64,000 nucleotides of DNA, from contig DASSGK010000567.1 in NCBI GenBank assembly GCA_035693505.1, positions 4,734-68,733 on the forward strand, written 5' to 3'. Below are positions 1,617 to 44,890 of the stretch, piece by piece (position 1 is the first letter of the stretch; each line of letters opens with the position of its first letter). Both the position numbers and the translations under genes were made by a program. This stretch comes from Vicinamibacterales bacterium (GTDB taxonomy: Bacteria > Acidobacteriota > Vicinamibacteria > Vicinamibacterales > CAVVIG01). A model generated the notes under the pieces. That model was not told the DNA's origin, did no database searches, and worked only from the letters and a program-made list of their open reading frames with translations.

Positions 1617-1730
1617 GGTCCGGCTAAAGCCGGACACTACCGACGTCGAATCACGGTCCGGCTAAAGCCGGAGACCACCGATTTCAAACGGCCGCCGCCG
1701 TATTCGGTAGTGTCCGGCTTTAGCCGGACC
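1617..1730. repeat. Three copies of a 26-nt palindromic unit, GGTCCGGCTAAAGCCGGA(C/G)AC(T/C)ACCG
   Basis: Copies at 1617-1642 and 1655-1680 are direct. The copy at 1705-1730 is the exact reverse complement of copy 1. Each unit contains the hairpin GTCCGGCT-AA-AGCCGGAC. The element is intergenic, between the thiolase and the upstream hydrolase. Confidence 0.9.
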
Positions 1731-1731
1731 C

Positions 1732-2403
1732 TTATCCCTGCCAATCTCCCAACAAATCCTCGATCGCGTCGGCGACCTCGGCCACCTTCCCGTCGAACAG
1801 ATGATCGGCGGCGTCGATGACGACCATCTCCTTCGGCTCCGCGGCGCGCGCGTAGAAGGCGCGCATGTCTTTCAGGAAACAGATCTCGTCGAACTCGCCC
1901 TGGATGAAAAATTTCGGCTTCGTGCTGCGTTCGACGCTCCCGAAGTCGTAGCGCGTGATTGGCGGCGCGATGCCGATGAGCGCCGAGACACGCGGATCTT
2001 CGGCGCCGACCGACAGGGCCACCCAGGCGCCGAACGACATGCCGGCGGCCCAAATCGCCGCGCCGGGATAGAGCGTCGCCATGTAGTCGAGCGCGGCGCG
2101 AAAGTCGTCCTGTTCGCCCGGCCCGTTCGTGAAGCTCCCTGCGCTCGCGCCCGCACCGCGGAAGTTGAATCGCAGCACCGCGCAGCCGATCCGGCTGAGC
2201 GCCTTCGCCGCCTGATACACGACCTTCGTGTGCATCGTGCCGCCCTGGCTCGTCAGGGGATGCGCAAACACCACGGCGGCGCGCAAGCCATCCGGATGGC
2301 CCTGACTGACGCGGCCGTCGTGGCCGATCGCCCCGGGCGCCATGGGCTCCTCGAGGAGCGCTTCAAGCCGTCCGGCCGGTCCGGCGAATTCACGCGGCGG
2401 CAT
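1732..2403 (-). CDS. alpha/beta hydrolase (COG2945-like)
   Basis: GMSFGAW nucleophile elbow and overall alpha/beta-fold pattern. Start trimmed to MPPREFAGPAGRLEALL, which gives a 14-nt overlap with the upstream gene. Confidence 0.75.
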   Translation of the reverse strand: MPPREFAGPAGRLEALLEEPMAPGAIGHDGRVSQGHPDGLRAAVVFAHPLTSQGGTMHTKVVYQAAKALSRIGCAVLRFNFRGAGASAGSFTNGPGEQDDFRAALDYMATLYPGAAIWAAGMSFGAWVALSVGAEDPRVSALIGIAPPITRYDFGSVERSTKPKFFIQGEFDEICFLKDMRAFYARAAEPKEMVVIDAADHLFDGKVAEVADAIEDLLGDWQG

Positions 2404-3202
2404 GTTCTCTTCTCGACAGAAACTCGTGGACGATACGCGCGAATTCCCGGGAGCGCGTGTTGCAGCCAAGATGGCCGGTCTGCGGGATCGCGACGAGCTT
2501 GGCGCCGGCGATCATCTGCGCGTAGCGCTCCGTGCCGCTGACCGGAACGATGCGATCGAGTGTGCGATCCCCGGTGATGACGAGGGTCGGCGCCGAGACG
2601 CGCGCGCAGTCGCCTTCGACATCGAGCGAGCGCAGCAGTTTGGCGCGCTGCGCAAGGCGGTTGACTGAAATGGGAGCAGTCACCAGCTTCGCTGCCTGGC
2701 CGAGCCCGAACGCCGCCCGGTCGCGCAGCGACGGCAAGGCCGTCAGCATTTCCCGCCTGAGACGCAGCGGCGTTTCGGCGAGAAACAGCGGCATGAAAAT
2801 CCAGGGCAGGCGCACGTACACCTCGTGGCGCCGCTTGAGATGCCACGGCGGTCCCGGCGTCGACACCAGCACGAGCGCCGACGTGCGATCAGGTGCCGCC
2901 GCGGCAAAGCGCAGAGCCGCGAGACCGCCAAACGAGATGCCGCAGATCGCCGCGCGCTCCAGACCACGGTCGTGCATCACCGCGGAGATCTGATCGACAT
3001 AGTTGTCCAGGCCGCGCGCTTCGTCGAACGGCAGGCCGGAGGCACGCTCTCCCGCGAGCGCGAACGTGATGACGCGAAAATGCTCCGCGAGCGCGGCGAT
3101 CGCCGGCTCGACGTACTCCCATCGTCCCTGGACGCCAGGGATCACGATGAGGGCCGGTCCGCTTCCACGGTCGATCAGTTTCACGAAGCCTCTGTTTCTC
3201 AC
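2390..3202 (-). CDS. alpha/beta hydrolase
   Basis: 270 aa with GISFGG (G-x-S-x-G) and a C-terminal TGH histidine. It lies in the same operon as the beta-oxidation genes. Confidence 0.8.
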   Translation of the reverse strand: MRNRGFVKLIDRGSGPALIVIPGVQGRWEYVEPAIAALAEHFRVITFALAGERASGLPFDEARGLDNYVDQISAVMHDRGLERAAICGISFGGLAALRFAAAAPDRTSALVLVSTPGPPWHLKRRHEVYVRLPWIFMPLFLAETPLRLRREMLTALPSLRDRAAFGLGQAAKLVTAPISVNRLAQRAKLLRSLDVEGDCARVSAPTLVITGDRTLDRIVPVSGTERYAQMIAGAKLVAIPQTGHLGCNTRSREFARIVHEFLSRREHAAA

Positions 3203-3230
3203 TTCCTCAAAATCCGCGCTTCCTCGAACC

Positions 3231-5519
3231 CTAATTTCTGAGGGGCTTGCCGGTTTTCAACGTGTGCTGAATACGCTCCAGCGTCTTGCGCTCTCCGCAC
3301 AGTTTCAGGAACGCTTCGCGCTCCAGCTCGAGGATGTACTCCTCGCTGACCGTCGTCTGGTGCGGCAGTGCACCGCCCGATAACACGTTCGCGAGCGCGC
3401 GGCCGACGACCGCGTCGTGATCGCTGATGCGGCCGGCTCTCCATGCCAGGTGGACGCCGAGCTTGATCGCCGCGAGCACGGTCTGGCCGCCGGCCAGGAT
3501 CGCGGTCCGCCGCGCGGGACGCTGGTAGCCTTCCTGCACGCGCTCGAGCGCATACGCCTTGGCGTCGGCCATGAGGCGCTCGCGGTTCATCGTCACGCGA
3601 TCGGCGTCGCCCAGGAAACCGAGCCGTCTTGCATCCGCGGCGCTCGTCGACACTTTCGCAAATCCGATGGTCTCGAAGGCCTGCTGAACGAACGGCAGCA
3701 GGTCGGGGTGGTTGGCCGGCAGTCCGTGAACCGCTCGCGCCAGCATTTCCTTGGTGCCGCCGCCGCCGGGTATCAGGCCGACGCCGACTTCGACGAGTCC
3801 GATATAACTTTCCGCGGCAGCCTGGACTCGGTCGGCGTGCAATGCCATCTCGCAGCCGCCGCCGAGCGTCAGCCCGGCGGGTGCGACGATCACGGGAACG
3901 TCGGCGTAGCGCAGCGCCTGGGTCGCGCCCTGGAACGTGCGAATCATCAGGTCGATCTCGTCCCAGTTGCCCTCCTGCGCCTCCAGCAGGAGCAGCATCA
4001 GGTTGGCGCCCGCGGAGAAGTTCGCCGCGTCGTTTCCGACGACGAGCGCCGCGAAGTTCGCCGCAGCCTCTTTTACGCCGGCGTGGATCATTTGAATCTG
4101 ATCGCCGCCGATGGCGTTCATCTTCGCGTGGAACTCGAGGGCCAGGACGCCGTCGCCGAGGTCGACGAGGCTCGCACCGGAGTTCTTGCGGACGATCCTG
4201 TTCCGTTCACGCGCGGACTTCAGGATCCACAGGTCGCTCGGCTGAAGCGTTCCGTGATCGCTCGGCTGAAGCCTTCGCGCTACATTCGATGCTGAGGAGC
4301 CTTCCTGTAGCGCGAAGGCTTTAGCCGAGCGTTCGTCGGTGGCTTGAGCCGAGCGTTCACTGCCTGTGAGGGTCGAGCGCCCGAGCGCCTCGATGATCGC
4401 GAACGGGCCCAGCTCCCAGCCGAATCCCCATCGCATCACCCGGTCCACATCGTCAGGCGAGTGCGCGATGTCGGGAGTGACTTTGGCCGTGTACTCGAGG
4501 GTCGGACCCAGTGTCTCGCGCAGGAATTCGCCGACCTTGTCCTTGCCGTGATAGAGCGACTTGATCCGTTCGCCGGTGTCTTCGATCGACTTTCCGGCCT
4601 CGATGGATGCCAGGCGCGCCGGTTGCTTCGGCCGGTACTCGAGCGTCGCGGGATCGAGCGTCAGGATCTCGCTGCCATCCTTTGTCTTTACGCGCTTGTA
4701 GAAGCCTTGACCGGCTTTCTCGCCGATCATCCCCTTCTCGATCATCGCCTTCACGAACGCCGGCAGCTCGAAGCCGAGGTTCTTCGCGACGTGCGCCAGG
4801 ATGTCGATGCCGGCAATGTCCATCGTCCGGAACGTGGCGCTTTTGGGGCGCCCGAGCGCCGGCCCGGTGATCGCGTCAATTTCCTCGATCGTGTAGCGGC
4901 CGCTCTCGAGCGCCTTCAGCGTCAGCATCACGCCATACAGTGCGAGATGGTTGCCGATGAAGTTCGGCGTGTCCTTCGCGAGCACCACGCCTTTGCCGAG
5001 TCGATGATCCGTGAACTGTGAGACGCGTTCGACGACGTCCGGATCGGTTTCGGCCGTCGGGATGACTTCGACGAGATGAAGGTAGCGGGGCGGGTTGAAG
5101 AAGTGCGTGCCGAGCCAGTGTCGTCGAAAATCGTCGCTTCGCCCTTCAGCGAGCGTCGCAATCGGAATTCCGGACGTGTTCGACGACACGATCGTGCCGG
5201 GACGACGAACGGCGTCGACGCGCTCGAGCAGCGTGCGCTTGATGTCGAGCTGTTCGACGACTGCTTCCGTGATCCAGTCCACCGACGCCAGCGCCGCGAA
5301 GTCTGTGTCGAACCCACCTATCGTGATGCGGGTGGCGGTGTCGCCTGTAAAGAATGGATCGGGCTTGAGCGACCGCGCGCGCTTGAGCCCCTCGCGCGCC
5401 ACGTCCGCGGTCAGGTCGAGCAGCATCACCGGGACGCCCGCATTCGCGAAGTGCGCGGCGATCTGCGCGCCCATCGTTCCGGCTCCGAGAACCGCCACCG
5501 ATCGGATCGTGTGCGCCAT
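3231..5519 (-). CDS. fused 3-hydroxyacyl-CoA dehydrogenase / enoyl-CoA hydratase (FadB/FadN-like)
   Basis: N-terminal VAVLGAGTMGAQIAAH Rossmann motif and HAD domain, plus a C-terminal crotonase fold (GGGCEMALHAD). A 42-codon repeat-derived insert sits in the interdomain linker. Confidence 0.9.
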   Translation of the reverse strand: MAHTIRSVAVLGAGTMGAQIAAHFANAGVPVMLLDLTADVAREGLKRARSLKPDPFFTGDTATRITIGGFDTDFAALASVDWITEAVVEQLDIKRTLLERVDAVRRPGTIVSSNTSGIPIATLAEGRSDDFRRHWLGTHFFNPPRYLHLVEVIPTAETDPDVVERVSQFTDHRLGKGVVLAKDTPNFIGNHLALYGVMLTLKALESGRYTIEEIDAITGPALGRPKSATFRTMDIAGIDILAHVAKNLGFELPAFVKAMIEKGMIGEKAGQGFYKRVKTKDGSEILTLDPATLEYRPKQPARLASIEAGKSIEDTGERIKSLYHGKDKVGEFLRETLGPTLEYTAKVTPDIAHSPDDVDRVMRWGFGWELGPFAIIEALGRSTLTGSERSAQATDERSAKAFALQEGSSASNVARRLQPSDHGTLQPSDLWILKSARERNRIVRKNSGASLVDLGDGVLALEFHAKMNAIGGDQIQMIHAGVKEAAANFAALVVGNDAANFSAGANLMLLLLEAQEGNWDEIDLMIRTFQGATQALRYADVPVIVAPAGLTLGGGCEMALHADRVQAAAESYIGLVEVGVGLIPGGGGTKEMLARAVHGLPANHPDLLPFVQQAFETIGFAKVSTSAADARRLGFLGDADRVTMNRERLMADAKAYALERVQEGYQRPARRTAILAGGQTVLAAIKLGVHLAWRAGRISDHDAVVGRALANVLSGGALPHQTTVSEEYILELEREAFLKLCGERKTLERIQHTLKTGKPLRN
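4233..4358. repeat. 126-nt compound palindromic element embedded in frame in the fadB-like CDS
   Basis: Inner arms are 4259-4283 (CGCTCGGCTGAAGCCTTCGCGCTAC) and 4307-4331 (GTAGCGCGAAGGCTTTAGCCGAGCG), with one mismatch. Outer arms are CGCTCGGCTGAAGCG and TTGAGCCGAGCG. The element is 126 nt, exactly 42 codons. Confidence 0.9.
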
Positions 5520-6148
5520 TACCTGGCCCGCGCGCCGCTGATGAAGACGTCGACCACCGTGTCGGCCTCGGCTTCGAGGGAATAGCGGCGGCGACTCAGG
5601 ATCCAGTTGGTGGCCATCTCGTCGAGCGCGCCGAAGAGCATCTTCGCCATCGCCGTCGCCTTCACGTCGGAGCGGAATAGACCCTCACGCTGACCATCGG
5701 CAACCGCCTCGCGGATGAGCCCGAGGTAATCACGCAGCAGCGTTGCGGAAAAGCGTTCCATGAACTTCGTGGACTGTCGCAGCTCCACCTGAAACACGAT
5801 CGCCAGGTTGCGGTCGCGGCCAAGCCGTGCGAGGTGAGCGCGCGCCAGGCGCAACAGGCGCTCGCGGGGATCGGACTCGTCCGCCACGGCCGCGCGCCCC
5901 TTCGTCAGGCCTTCGCGCATGCTGCGCTCGAAGATGGAAACCAGGAGGTCGTCTTTGCTCTTGAAGTAGAGATAAACGGTGCCGGCGGCGACGCCGGCGG
6001 CGCGGGCGACATCGGCGACCTGTGCGTTGAAGAAGCCGCGCTCGGCGAAGACATCGATCGCCGCGCGGAGGATCGCGTCTCGTTTGGGACCCGGCGGCGC
6101 CTCAGGGGCGGCGGGCCGGCTGCGGCGCGCGACAACGTTCAGCGGCAT
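5519..6148 (-). CDS. TetR/AcrR-family regulator, probably a FadR-type repressor of the beta-oxidation operon
   Basis: TetR helix-turn-helix region (ILRAAIDVFAERGFFNAQVADVARAAGVAAGTVYLYFKSKDDLL). It is the first gene of the fad operon. Start trimmed to MPLNV (ATG at 6148) because the track start at 6166 lies inside the operator palindrome. Confidence 0.8.
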   Translation of the reverse strand: MPLNVVARRSRPAAPEAPPGPKRDAILRAAIDVFAERGFFNAQVADVARAAGVAAGTVYLYFKSKDDLLVSIFERSMREGLTKGRAAVADESDPRERLLRLARAHLARLGRDRNLAIVFQVELRQSTKFMERFSATLLRDYLGLIREAVADGQREGLFRSDVKATAMAKMLFGALDEMATNWILSRRRYSLEAEADTVVDVFISGARAR

Positions 6149-6172
6149 GACTGAATGAATGTTCATTCAGTC
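6149..6172 (-). promoter_or_regulatory. Palindromic operator GACTGAATGAA-TG-TTCATTCAGTC with an overlapping putative promoter
   Basis: Perfect 11-bp inverted arms with a 2-nt spacer, directly abutting the TetR start codon. On the minus strand there is a TTGACA at 6188-6183 and a GAACAT -10 candidate at 6164-6159 inside the operator, with an 18-nt spacer. Confidence 0.7.
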
Positions 6173-28262: not shown

Positions 28263-29713
28263 CGATGGCTTCGGCGGTGCTGCACCTGATGGCGGGCTGG
28301 GTCGCGACGCAGATGGACGGGTCGATCGTGGCCGGCGAGCGCGCGCGGGAGTTTACCGATGTTTCGATCGACAGCCGCACGGTGAAGGCGGGCGAGTTGT
28401 ACGTCGGCATCCGCGGCGAACGCTTCGACGGCGCTGAGTTCGCGTCGGCCGCGATCGAGGCCGGTGCCGCCGGCGTCGTCGTGCCGCGTGGATGGAGCGC
28501 GAACGCTTCAGCCGAGCGAGATGCCGTGACAGGTAGCGCGAAGGCTTTAGCCGAGCGGGGCGTCGTCGTGATCGAGGTCGACGATACGACCGCGGCGCTG
28601 CAGGCGCTGGCGCACGGAGTCCGGCGCGAGGCGGGCACGAAGGTCGTGGCGATCACCGGGAGCGCCGGCAAGACCACGACCAAGGAAGTGACGAGCGAGT
28701 TTCTCGAGACGCGGTACCGCGTGGTCCGCAACCGGGGGAATTTCAACAATCACATCGGCTTGCCGCTGTCGCTGATTGAACTGAGGCTGCGGCCGGAGGT
28801 CGCCGTCGTCGAGCTGGGAATGAATCACGCGGGCGAAATCAGCACGCTGGTGCGAGTTGCCGAGCCGGACGTCCGTGTGTGGACGAACGTCGGCGAAGCG
28901 CACCTGGGCTTCTTTGCGTCGATCGATGCCATCGCCGATGCCAAGGCGGAGATTCTCGAGAGAGCCGACGCTTCGACGCTGCTCGTCGCGAATGCCGACG
29001 ATCCCAGGATCAGCGCGCGGATCGGTGCGTTTCCCGGCCGCGTCGTCACGTTCGGAATCGACTCCGACGCCGACGTGCGTGCCCGCGACGTCGTGGACCG
29101 CGGCATCGAGGGGACCAGCGCGCGGGTGAGCGCGCGGAGCGGAGTCGTGGAGATCTCCACGCCGCTCGTCGGAAAAGCCAATCTCGCGAACATCCTCGCG
29201 GCCACGGCCGTCGCCGAGGAGTTCGGTGTTCCACTGGCGGAGATCTCGGCGAAGGCAGCCGGCCTTCGGCCGGCCGCGCACCGCGGCGAAATCGTCCGCC
29301 TTGCCAGCGGCGTGACCGTCGTCGACGACAGCTACAACGCGAACCCGACGGCGACCAGGAAGGCCCTCGAGGTGCTGGCATCGGGACGAGCATCACGCCG
29401 GATCGCGGTCATCGGCGAGATGCTCGAGCTCGGAGACGGCTCGGCGGAACTCCATGCCGGCGTTGGACGAGCGGCGGCGAAAGCCGGCGTGAACCTGCTC
29501 TTCGCGGTCGGGGGCGCTCCAGCGAAGGCGCTGGCTGATGCCGCCGTTCAATCAGGCATGACGGCAGCGAGCGTGCAGTACTTTGCGACGAGCGACGACG
29601 CTGCGCTCGCCGTCGTGGCGTCGGTGAAGGCCGGCGATCTCGTGCTGGTGAAGGGATCGCGTGGCGTGAAGACGGATCGTGTCGTCGAGCGCCTGAAGGC
29701 GGAGCGTGGCTGA
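28259..29713 (+). CDS. murF: UDP-N-acetylmuramoyl-tripeptide--D-alanyl-D-alanine ligase
   Basis: ITGSAGKTTTKE P-loop and MurF order in the dcw cluster. The N-terminal domain carries a repeat-derived insert of about 20 codons. Confidence 0.95.
   Translation: MTMASAVLHLMAGWVATQMDGSIVAGERAREFTDVSIDSRTVKAGELYVGIRGERFDGAEFASAAIEAGAAGVVVPRGWSANASAERDAVTGSAKALAERGVVVIEVDDTTAALQALAHGVRREAGTKVVAITGSAGKTTTKEVTSEFLETRYRVVRNRGNFNNHIGLPLSLIELRLRPEVAVVELGMNHAGEISTLVRVAEPDVRVWTNVGEAHLGFFASIDAIADAKAEILERADASTLLVANADDPRISARIGAFPGRVVTFGIDSDADVRARDVVDRGIEGTSARVSARSGVVEISTPLVGKANLANILAATAVAEEFGVPLAEISAKAAGLRPAAHRGEIVRLASGVTVVDDSYNANPTATRKALEVLASGRASRRIAVIGEMLELGDGSAELHAGVGRAAAKAGVNLLFAVGGAPAKALADAAVQSGMTAASVQYFATSDDAALAVVASVKAGDLVLVKGSRGVKTDRVVERLKAERG
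28497..28557. repeat. Repeat element inside murF (a degenerate copy plus an exact 25-mer copy)
   Basis: 28533-28557 is GTAGCGCGAAGGCTTTAGCCGAGCG, identical to 4307-4331. 28497-28518 is GCGCGAACGCTTCAGCCGAGCG, a degenerate direct copy. Translated in frame as SANASAERDAVTGSAKALAERG. Confidence 0.9.
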
Positions 29714-42807: not shown

Positions 42808-43599
42808 ATGAATTCACAGCCTAACGACGGTTTCGAGTGGGTGCAAGCGGCCGGCGGCCCGGCGCTGGTGTGTGTGCCACTCCGGCCGTTTGCCGATCAT
42901 CTCTTTACGACGCGCGATTGGGCGCTCGGGTCCCCCGCCGGCGGCGCGGACGCGGATTGGCAGCCGGTGGCGGCCTCGCTCGGCGTCGATGCGGCTCACC
43001 TCGTCCGATTGCACCAGGTCCACGGCGCCGCGGTCGTCGTCAGGCGCGCGGGAGACGGCCGGCCAGTCCAGCCGCGTCCCAATGCCGACATCGTTGTCTC
43101 AGACGACGCGTCGGTGGCGCTGGCCATCCAGACGGCGGACTGCGTGCCTTTGCTGATCGCGGACCGCGCGACCGGTGTGGTAGCGGCAGCGCACGCGGGG
43201 TGGCGCGGCCTTGCCGCCGGGGTTCCAGGAGTGACGGTCGTCGCCCTCACGCACGAGTTCGGAAGCGCGCCCGCGAACTTGATCGCCGCGGTCGGCCCTT
43301 CGATCAGCGCCGAGCGCTACGAGGTCGGGGAGGACGTGCGAGCGCATTTTCTCGCGTCGGGATGGCCCGCCGCCCGGCTCGAACGATGGTTTCCGTCCGC
43401 CACGCGTCAGGGTCACTGGCTGTTCGATGGATGGGAATCGGTGCGCGATCAGTTGCTGTCGGCGGGCGTTCCTGGTTCCAGCATCTATTCGGCGGCGCTC
43501 TGCACGTCCGCCAATCCCGATCTGTTCTGCTCGTACCGCCGCGATGGCAAAGGCGCCGGGCGGATCGCGGCTGCTATTCGACGATCGTCGCTCGGCTAA
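42808..43599 (+). CDS. pgeF: peptidoglycan editing factor PgeF (YfiH/DUF152 laccase-domain protein)
   Basis: LHQVHGAAVVV, TADCVPLL, HAGWRG and CTSANPDLFCSYRRDG motifs. Start is the ATG at 42808; the track ORF start at 42526 is antisense to acpS. Confidence 0.9.
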   Translation: MNSQPNDGFEWVQAAGGPALVCVPLRPFADHLFTTRDWALGSPAGGADADWQPVAASLGVDAAHLVRLHQVHGAAVVVRRAGDGRPVQPRPNADIVVSDDASVALAIQTADCVPLLIADRATGVVAAAHAGWRGLAAGVPGVTVVALTHEFGSAPANLIAAVGPSISAERYEVGEDVRAHFLASGWPAARLERWFPSATRQGHWLFDGWESVRDQLLSAGVPGSSIYSAALCTSANPDLFCSYRRDGKGAGRIAAAIRRSSLG

Positions 43600-43613
43600 A
43601 GCCTTCGCGCTAC
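43589..43613. repeat. Third exact copy (reverse orientation) of the 25-mer element, containing the pgeF stop codon
   Basis: CGCTCGGCTAAAGCCTTCGCGCTAC is the reverse complement of GTAGCGCGAAGGCTTTAGCCGAGCG. The TAA at 43597-43599 in the GGCTAAAGCC loop is the pgeF stop. Confidence 0.9.
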
Positions 43614-43652
43614 GGCCTGCATCGGATGAAAACGTTTTCGGCGTTCGATGAG

Positions 43653-44141
43653 TTAGCGCGACGCGGCGTCGTCCATCGCCGTGTTGGCCAGACGATCGGC
43701 GTGCGCGTTCAGCGAACGTCCCACGTGCTCGAAGGTGACGCGGCCGATCTCGTGCGCGAGCATGCGCGCCTTGGCGTGCAGCGGCTGCAACCCTGCGTTC
43801 TTCACCTTGTAGTTGCCGAGCATCTGCTGGACGAGCAGGAGCGAATCGGACCGCACGTGCAATCGCTCCGCGCCATGACGTTTGGCCCAGTCGAGCGCGG
43901 CCAGCAGCGCGCGGTATTCGGCCACGTTGTTCGTAGCGACGCCGATGGATTCCGCGAATTCTTCGACGAGCGTGCCGTCAGGCTGCTCGATGCGGACGCC
44001 GAAGCCCGCCGGTCCCGGGTTACCACGCGCGCCGCCGTCGATGTAGGCCACGATGTGGCCCGTTGACGGGCCGTCCGAGAAAGGCAGCGTCTGCCCTGAG
44101 CCCTTTTGAGGGGCCTGCCCTGAGCTTCGTCGAAGGGTCAC
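43653..44141 (-). CDS. rnhA: ribonuclease HI
   Basis: YIDGGARGNPGPAG, TNNVAEYRALL and HADRLAN catalytic motifs. Start set to the GTG at 44141, which overlaps the upstream stop (GTGA). If the repeat-derived first ~28 codons are untranslated, the GTG at 44051 is the start. Confidence 0.85.
   Translation of the reverse strand: MTLRRSSGQAPQKGSGQTLPFSDGPSTGHIVAYIDGGARGNPGPAGFGVRIEQPDGTLVEEFAESIGVATNNVAEYRALLAALDWAKRHGAERLHVRSDSLLLVQQMLGNYKVKNAGLQPLHAKARMLAHEIGRVTFEHVGRSLNAHADRLANTAMDDAASR
44061..44137. repeat. Two GCTCAGGGCAG units at the rnhA 5' end
   Basis: The minus strand reads TTCGACGAAGCTCAGGGCAGGCCCCTCAAAAGGGCTCAGGGCAGACGCTGCC. The 16-mer AAGGGCTCAGGGCAGA is also present at 32236-32251. 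Confidence 0.8.
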
Positions 44142-44890
44142 GATGCCGGCTGGGGCGACGCGTCTGCCGCGGGAGTCGCCGCCTTCACGGGAACGAAGAA
44201 CAGGATCCGGTTGCAGCTGTCGCACTGAACGATCTCTTCGTTGCGGCGCACCGTGTTGAAGACCTGCGGGCGGAGCCGCACGTGGCAGATCGTGCAGATG
44301 CCATCGCGCGCCTCGGCCACCGCCACACCGTTGCGCTTGCGCGACACGGCCTCGAACGTCGTGAGCACCTGTTTGTCGAGGCTGCCGACCAGCGAGGAAC
44401 GTTCCGCGACGATGCGCTCGAGCGCGGCTTCCATTTCACCGTGGGCGGCCTTCATCGTCTTGCGATCGGCATCCACGGCCTTCGTTTCGGCGGCAAGCTT
44501 GCCCTCGGCGGCTTTCAGGCTGGCGGTGAGGTCGTCGCTCTCCACCATCCGCTCGAGGATCGAATCTTCGATTTTCTTGACTTCGGTTTGCGCGAAGGTG
44601 ATTTCGTGCTGAATCGCGTGGTATTCCTGGTTGGTCTTGACCGCCATCGCCTGCTCGCGGAACTTCGACAGGCGTCCCTGCTGCACCGCGACATCCTTCT
44701 CGAGCGCGGCGCGGGCGCTCTTGTTGGCCGCGACCCGGTCTTTCGCGGCGGCCACCTCCTGCCGCGCCGCTTCGAGCCGCGCTTCGAGCGCGCGCTCGTG
44801 CTCCGGCTCCGACGCGAGCTGCTTGCGCGCGGCGTCCGCCGTGTTGTCGAGTTTCTGCAGTGCGATGAGTCGTTCCAGGTCGGCGTTCAT
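44138..44890 (-). CDS. zinc-ribbon coiled-coil protein (COG1579/DUF164 family)
   Basis: Long coiled coil followed by CTICHVRLRPQ...CDSCNRILF, a C4 zinc ribbon. It shows the usual neighbourhood with RNase H. Confidence 0.8.
   Translation of the reverse strand: MNADLERLIALQKLDNTADAARKQLASEPEHERALEARLEAARQEVAAAKDRVAANKSARAALEKDVAVQQGRLSKFREQAMAVKTNQEYHAIQHEITFAQTEVKKIEDSILERMVESDDLTASLKAAEGKLAAETKAVDADRKTMKAAHGEMEAALERIVAERSSLVGSLDKQVLTTFEAVSRKRNGVAVAEARDGICTICHVRLRPQVFNTVRRNEEIVQCDSCNRILFFVPVKAATPAADASPQPAS

Follow-up and report, generated by a model that had tools for sequence, protein, structure and literature searches.

GTAG-type REP units lie in frame within the fadB-like and murF genes of a Vicinamibacterales bacterium

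We analyzed a 64,000-nt stretch of DNA from a Vicinamibacterales bacterium (contig DASSGK010000567.1; the whole stretch is hereafter called the window), in which a fadB-like gene (3231 to 5519, reverse strand) contains a long palindrome (4233 to 4358) composed of 25-nt repetitive extragenic palindrome (REP) units. The open reading frame (ORF) is intact, encoding 762 amino acids with neither a stop codon nor a frameshift across the palindrome. The predicted product consists of an N-terminal dehydrogenase (Pfam 3HCDH_N/3HCDH; residues 7 to 275) followed by an enoyl-CoA hydratase (Pfam ECH; residues 458 to 597), and its best NCBIfam model (residues 4 to 381) is of the Staph_FadB type, which has the dehydrogenase first and the hydratase second. 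Because the 126 nt of the palindrome (i.e., codons 388 to 429) fall between the Pfam 3HCDH and ECH domains, they represent the interdomain linker, with the 42-residue predicted peptide ERSAQATDERSAKAFALQEGSSASNVARRLQPSDHGTLQPSD.

The palindrome is organized at two levels. Its inverted arms (4235 to 4284 and 4306 to 4355; 50 nt each) are 82% complementary and lie 21 nt apart. The inner right arm (4307 to 4331, forward strand) is an exact 25-nt unit with a 5' GTAG head, GTAGCGCGAAGGCTTTAGCCGAGCG, which is read antisense in the gene as RSAKAFAL. The inner left arm (4259 to 4283, reverse strand), GTAGCGCGAAGGCTTCAGCCGAGCG, has a single mismatch to this unit and is read as VARRLQPS; the two inner arms are thus complementary at 24 of 25 positions. 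The sole mismatch is a C instead of a T at unit position 16, and it is exactly the one that spares the gene an in-frame TAG (the codon is CAG). The inner units are separated by a 23-nt spacer (4284 to 4306) with their GTAG heads pointing inward, an arrangement called a 'TT' dimer in the nomenclature of PMC3733652. Each arm also contains a direct duplication at a spacing of 24 nt (4234 to 4252 versus 4258 to 4276; 4317 to 4334 versus 4341 to 4358). The outer left half-unit, GAACGCTTCAGCCGAGCG (4235 to 4252, reverse strand), and the outer right half-unit, GGCTTGAGCCGAGCG... (4341 to 4358, forward strand), are direct repeats of the inner units that lack the GTAG head, and they match the 25-mer at 4235 to 4248 (reverse strand) and 4342 to 4355 (forward strand). 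A third, very degenerate unit is possible at approximately 4359 to 4382. Units at a 24/25-nt period fill nearly all of the linker (three to the left, two to the right), and because they make up almost its whole length, the ancestral linker appears to have been replaced and not merely interrupted. For the RNA of this region (4225 to 4365), a single long hairpin is predicted, with a folding energy of -84.1 kcal/mol, compared with -48.0 +/- 3.9 kcal/mol for shuffled sequences (z = -9.3; 0 of 200 shuffles as good).

At up to 3 mismatches, the 25-mer matches the window five times, compared with 0.00 matches expected from 100 shuffles, and these matches mark three sites. At the second site, the murF gene contains two units in direct orientation, both in frame: one with a GGAG head and 3 mismatches (28494 to 28518, forward strand; read as WSANASAER) and one exact copy (28533 to 28557, forward strand; read as GSAKALAER). 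They encode a loop that is absent from the solved MurF structures, and the segment aligns to a gap when compared with 4cvk and 1gg4. At the third site, an exact unit (43589 to 43613, reverse strand) lies between pgeF and a convergent RNase H-like ORF and supplies the last three pgeF codons together with the TAA stop codon (43597 to 43599). The RNase H-like ORF spans 43653 to 44225 (reverse strand), and a small palindrome, GAAAACGTTTTC, occurs just downstream of the unit (region 43589 to 43660). An earlier note, made from the sequence of the window alone, had described a two-level, 126-nt (42-codon) palindrome read through in frame between the two domains of a FadB-like enzyme, with an exact 25-mer recurring in murF and at the pgeF stop; its coordinates and each of these observations were borne out.

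The peptide encoded by the unit depends on frame and orientation (RSAKAFAL and VARRLQPS in FadB; SAKALAER in MurF). The repeat is therefore one of DNA; a protein-level repeat was ruled out by the use of three different frames or orientations. Stop codons occur in two of the six unit frames (the head contributes TAG, and the reverse strand TRA), and in a third frame if position 16 is T.

The consensus of the unit is G[T/G]AGCGCGAAGGCTT[C/T]AGCCGAGCG. In an alignment of 166 copies with 40-nt flanks, positions 1 to 25 were conserved at 91 to 99%, except at two sites where either of two bases occurs, and conservation dropped sharply at both edges of the unit. The head lies outside the search pattern and is conserved nonetheless (G, 98%; T, 66%, or G, 26%; A, 91%; G, 98%; C, 95%). 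In the unit, the GTAG head precedes a small predicted hairpin made up of a CGC/GCG stem, a tandem G.A mismatch with a bulged A, and a GGCT-TY-AGCC end. Sister families (e.g., GTAGAGCGGAGGCTTYAGCCTCCGC and GTAGAGCGCAGGCTTCAGCCTGCG) have perfect stems where the window unit is mismatched, and the arms of the element at another locus (L112) carry G-C to C-G swaps at paired positions. The 5' GTAG head, the short imperfect palindromic stem, and the TY loop match the published description, and the 25-mer is a GTAG-type REP.

Its distribution was examined by a scan with a 20-nt pattern of one genome per GTDB species. Among the matches listed, there were more than 109 genomic loci, and all but one belonged to metagenome-assembled genomes (MAGs) of Vicinamibacterales/Acidobacteriota gp6 (subdivision 6). 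Thus, the 25-mer is not unique to the three sites of the window, an outcome on which the earlier note's reading of it as a dispersed repeat had hinged. The only non-Acidobacteriota match listed (L087, 7800 to 7819; Mesorhizobium tianshanense) is a single copy without a GTAG head and is probably due to chance. Single MAGs contain at least 15 (CAVWRG), at least 12 (QHWJ01), and at least 11 (JANYHS) loci. The best overlap of a fetched locus with the window (L083) has 79% identity. Most copies lie at or just past gene ends; with ORF and intergenic calls made by a simple heuristic (third-codon-position G+C content and ORFs) and not by a gene caller, approximately 88 to 93% were outside ORFs and about 7 to 12% were in frame inside them (15 of 122 clusters, or 12 of 169 units under a stricter per-unit test).

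REPs of this type are known to be accompanied by REP-associated tyrosine transposases (RAYTs), and a scan of the fetched loci for the HUH...Y motif yielded one ORF (L101, 7171 to 7707). This ORF matched the NCBIfam model REP_Tyr_transpos (NF047646) with 86.2 bits (cut-off, 80 bits), as well as Pfam Y1_Tnp and the Escherichia coli TnpA_REP structure (PDB 4er8). In this region of L101 (CAVRVT010000004.1, 7023 to 7724), five tandem units of a variant shorter by one base, with a period of 30 to 35 nt, lie ahead of the gene, and an inverted unit overlaps the stop codon at its 3' end. Both L101 and another locus, L113, show the RAYT arrangement with GGAG-headed sister variants. When metagenome contigs were scanned with the L101 RAYT, 80 related loci were found, and the RAYT genes of three of them (L115, L120, and L114; 94 to 102 bits) are flanked by inverted copies of the window 25-mer that are exact or have 1 mismatch. 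L115 has three forward units (1335 to 1438), the RAYT gene (1501 to 1953), and one reverse unit (1960 to 1984); L120 has an exact forward unit (1411 to 1435), the RAYT gene (1501 to 1932), and an exact reverse unit (1952 to 1976); and L114 has an exact forward unit (13 to 37), the RAYT gene (143 to 613), and a reverse array of units (602 to 794). This is the canonical REP/RAYT arrangement. At three other loci (L005, L018, and L031), the ORFs between oppositely oriented units 600 to 900 nt apart proved to be ordinary genes and not RAYTs. A long ORF can also be read through the upstream array of L101, and automatic annotation may extend the N terminus of this transposase into REP-coded sequence.

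The fadB linker varies among orthologues. Among the closest 112 homologues with a recognizable linker, the rest of the protein is 77 to 100% identical, while the linker ranges from 20 to 63 residues, that of the window being the longest. REP-coded peptides are recognizable in 26 of the 112 linkers, and every linker is in frame whatever its length. At this site, orthologues of 78 to 95% identity differ in the REP family, have fewer units, or lack REPs. P0012 (L110) holds one clean dimer there, formed by a reverse unit and, 14 nt further on, a forward unit, and P0002 (L112) has two dimers of a sister REP family. Short degenerate palindromes are found in L111 and L197, and only a remnant of the right-hand unit is found in L196. 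In P0087 and P0111, the first half of the linker is a REP dimer and the second half is native sequence. P0101 (L195), from a MAG in which the family occurs at other places, has a native linker free of REPs, IRELLDAIGSPEEVPRLFAEQFAAGRNRFRDGAVPPAAPDL. The linker peptide is therefore not shared through ordinary divergence, given that orthologues differ by whole units and one is REP-free. The gene order of a TetR-family regulator, the fadB-like gene, and an alpha/beta hydrolase (window positions 2390 to 6166) is kept in L110, L111, L112, and L195 to L197; the TetR ORF of the window shares one base (5519) with the fadB ORF.

The MurF loop shows the same type of variation. Between the motifs PRGW and VVIEVDD, close orthologues have 8 to 41 residues, with REP-coded peptides in 21 of 100. 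One further murF gene (L193; ERZ27252459 k141_3467947) has approximately 99% DNA identity to the window murF (28494 to 28560) and contains one additional block of 39 nt, made up of a 14-nt spacer and a 25-nt REP, giving three in-frame units versus two. This difference represents a strain-level, unit-sized, in-frame polymorphism in protein length, for which gain and loss are indistinguishable. The alignment of orthologues called for by the earlier note to reveal presence/absence polymorphism thus showed FadB linkers and MurF loops differing by whole units. In addition, the recurring peptide GLKPRAT occurs in the same loop of six MurF orthologues (P0134, P0137, P0147, P0148, P0161, and P0184; alignment A2), and it would fit the translation of a putative sister REP of the form GTAGCGCGGGGCTTCAGCCC.

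We consider it very likely that the element is a cluster of GTAG-type REPs, belonging to a RAYT-associated (i.e., Y1/HUH transposase of the TnpA_REP type) family that is dispersed in Vicinamibacterales. The FadB palindrome is a heads-inward dimer of two full units nested in a truncated dimer of head-less units (i.e., four units), and this nested structure probably arose from local duplication or nested insertion. In the proposed scenario, single-strand transposition mediated by a RAYT, or else recombination or conversion among REP copies, would bring units into the interdomain linker, where they would then multiply locally and, over time, displace the ancestral linker. They would persist because the linker is tolerant of length and probably disordered, and because the frame and orientation used belong to the four unit frames, out of six, that lack stop codons. 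Their most likely present state is that of a neutral passenger translated as approximately 42 low-complexity linker residues, for which AFALQEGSSASNVAR and LQPSDHGTLQPSDLWILK are the predicted tryptic peptides. The same process may have acted at the MurF surface loop and may have supplied the stop codon of pgeF.

The earlier note had regarded the 126-mer as the palindromic element and its presence in the protein as an in-frame insertion. This reading holds at its core: a palindromic element of a dispersed family is indeed read in frame in a domain linker, but the mobile unit would be the 25-nt GTAG REP, the 126-mer being a nested cluster of four; and REPs do lie in frame, but not by simple insertion, the units having replaced the ancestral linker. 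The surface loop that the note expected of a structural model could not be confirmed. In the AlphaFold2 model of the 762-residue protein, which was built from an alignment of 37 close homologues, residues 1 to 383 were confidently predicted, while the whole C-terminal half had a predicted local distance difference test (pLDDT) score of <50 and the insert a score of approximately 27. A PDB search found no solved structure spanning both FadB domains in the dehydrogenase-hydratase order.

Several points weigh against the REP/RAYT interpretation. A tblastn search with four RAYTs gave nothing significant in the 64-kb window, and the putative RAYT association of the window family rests on related metagenome contigs. 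Singletons are dominant, and direct tandem arrays match inverted dimers in frequency. The 39 nt by which the murF genes differ might just as well reflect a deletion through recombination between units, no transposition having been seen directly. The proportions of intergenic and in-frame copies depend on the heuristic described above. Finally, the low pLDDT of the insert suggests only weakly that it is disordered, as it lies in a C-terminal half that was poorly modelled throughout.

Alternatively, the palindrome may be kept for an RNA or DNA function of its own, such as an mRNA hairpin at which translation would pause between one domain and the next, a processing or stabilizing site, or a protein-binding site. 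The inner arms have remained complementary at all but one position despite the ORF, the predicted hairpin is far more stable than those of shuffled sequences, REP pairs occur in the same linker in many lineages (26 of 112 close orthologues), and REPs elsewhere act as RNA elements (PMC3733652). However, other orthologues carry different REP families, different unit numbers, remnants, or no unit, so that no specific structure is conserved, and the high identity of the arms is expected of young copies of an active repeat family. Scans for promoters and terminators revealed no promoter-like or terminator-like site at the FadB palindrome, and the Rfam scan gave only a sub-threshold chance match (mir-55; 22.9 bits versus a gathering score of 53). 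Moreover, the murF copies are direct and not inverted. We therefore regard such a function as improbable. The broader proposal that REP hairpins are retained in coding regions for RNA pausing or processing, or that they are in-frame 'length switches', driven by RAYTs or recombination, through which certain enzyme loops (the FadB linker and the MurF N-domain loop) become programmable hypervariable sites throughout the order, seems to us just as improbable.

A slightly smaller chance is given to the explanation that the family is a fossil without a current transposase role, spread by general recombination or replication slippage among short G+C-rich repeats. Direct tandem arrays in which the spacers are short are frequent, the window contains no RAYT, and slippage or unequal recombination between units would fit both the duplication of 24-nt period in fadB and the 39 nt by which the murF genes differ. 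Against this explanation, exact copies occur at unlinked sites, conservation ends precisely at the unit boundaries, RAYT genes on several contigs have the unit on both sides in the canonical inverted layout, and the additional murF unit is not a copy of its neighbor plus spacer. Although palindromes can cause assembly errors and two of the six unit frames contain stops, a pseudogene or mis-assembly with fortuitous read-through is hardly credible, in view of 762 uninterrupted codons, flanks that retain all columns invariant in 37 orthologues, in-frame linkers in all orthologues, and an identical 762-residue protein on 4 contigs from 2 sources (JGI and ENA), which itself counts against a pseudogene or an assembly artefact.

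Among known systems, the REP/RAYT interpretation places the element closest to the described GTAG REPs and their RAYTs (Nunvar et al. 2010, PMC2817692; PMC3733652; 4er8). Shared features are the length of 25 nt, the 5' GTAG degenerate at its second position, the imperfect stem, and the TY loop; the occurrence of singletons, dimers with heads outside or inside, and clusters, mostly beside the 3' ends of genes; RAYT genes flanked by inverted copies; and a minority of in-frame copies that encode tens of residues, presumably in linkers or loops. Unlike the described GTAG REPs, the window family has a stem with a tandem G.A mismatch and a bulge, a whole interdomain linker has been replaced, and the same loop has been colonized by several sister families across lineages. 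Intragenic GTAG and CGTC REPs encoding 20 to 82 residues were previously reported in several species (Di Nocera et al. 2013, PMC3733652); REP clusters encode up to 43 to 82 amino acids, and such insertions may be neutral, since they fall within flexible linkers or loops (PMC3733652). The earlier note's impression that in-frame insertion had not been described for such an element is thus mistaken, since intragenic GTAG/CGTC REPs were already on record in other phyla.

REP doublets forming hairpins (REPINs; Bertels and Rainey 2011, PMC3116915) likewise consist of two inverted REPs with a short spacer that form one long hairpin, within a RAYT-associated family. Inverted doublets of this kind were found here (4259 to 4283 with 4307 to 4331, 23-nt spacer; and the L110 doublet, 14-nt spacer). 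They differ from REPINs in that singletons and direct arrays predominate, the FadB dimer heads inward, and REPINs are described as extragenic. Singletons made up 94 of the 129 clusters, and pairs were both inverted and direct; because singletons dominate and direct arrays equal inverted ones, the inverted doublet is not demonstrated as the replicating unit, although the cluster sample is biased by the search pattern and the test is therefore weak.

The analogy that the earlier note drew with Rickettsia palindromic elements (RPEs) is apt. As the work of Ogata et al. (2000) is reported in PMC3733652, RPEs are palindromic repeats in frame in functional genes, where they are tolerated in surface or linker regions; the same source assigns RPE-4 and RPE-6 to the CGTC-tagged REP superfamily, without a transposase-gene association, and refers to RPE-1 as 'longer palindromic insertions.' The window element is set apart by published descriptions, having another host and sequence and a 25-nt GTAG unit with RAYTs, and the relationship is one of analogy only. 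Around the 25-nt unit, neither conserved flanks nor target-site duplications were found in the 166 aligned copies. [quoted passage not shown] In-frame MITEs (Nezha, Correia/NEMIS, and ERIC; PMC3184786, PMC10969869) resemble the window element as small non-autonomous palindromes that can add peptide segments to ORFs, but MITEs are 70 to 300 bp long with terminal inverted repeats (PMC3733652), whereas the window unit has 25 nt and its associated enzyme is a Y1/HUH transposase.

A literature search found no paper on REPs or RAYTs in Vicinamibacterales. Since REPs in frame were on record before, the current view of REPs is unchanged; what is new here is the REP family, the host order, a linker replaced in its entirety, and the repeated colonization of the FadB and MurF loops by sister families. 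The results add a previously undescribed REP/RAYT system in an abundant but poorly studied soil lineage, in which REP units have replaced a whole interdomain linker and the copy number varies between contigs with approximately 99% identical murF DNA. For annotation, REPs account for segments of low complexity and variable length in Acidobacteriota proteins, as well as for some of their stop codons. The FadB and MurF loops, in turn, represent natural experiments in linker tolerance for the study of protein evolution.

The window also contains a second GTAG-type REP family, GGTAGTGTCCGGCTTTAGCCGGACC, in which the 8-bp stem is perfect and the GGCT-TT-AGCC core is shared with the first. Its three copies (1617 to 1641, reverse strand; 1655 to 1679, reverse strand; and 1706 to 1730, forward strand; chance expectation, 0.00) lie at gene ends within approximately 115 nt, and one of them has a GTGG head.

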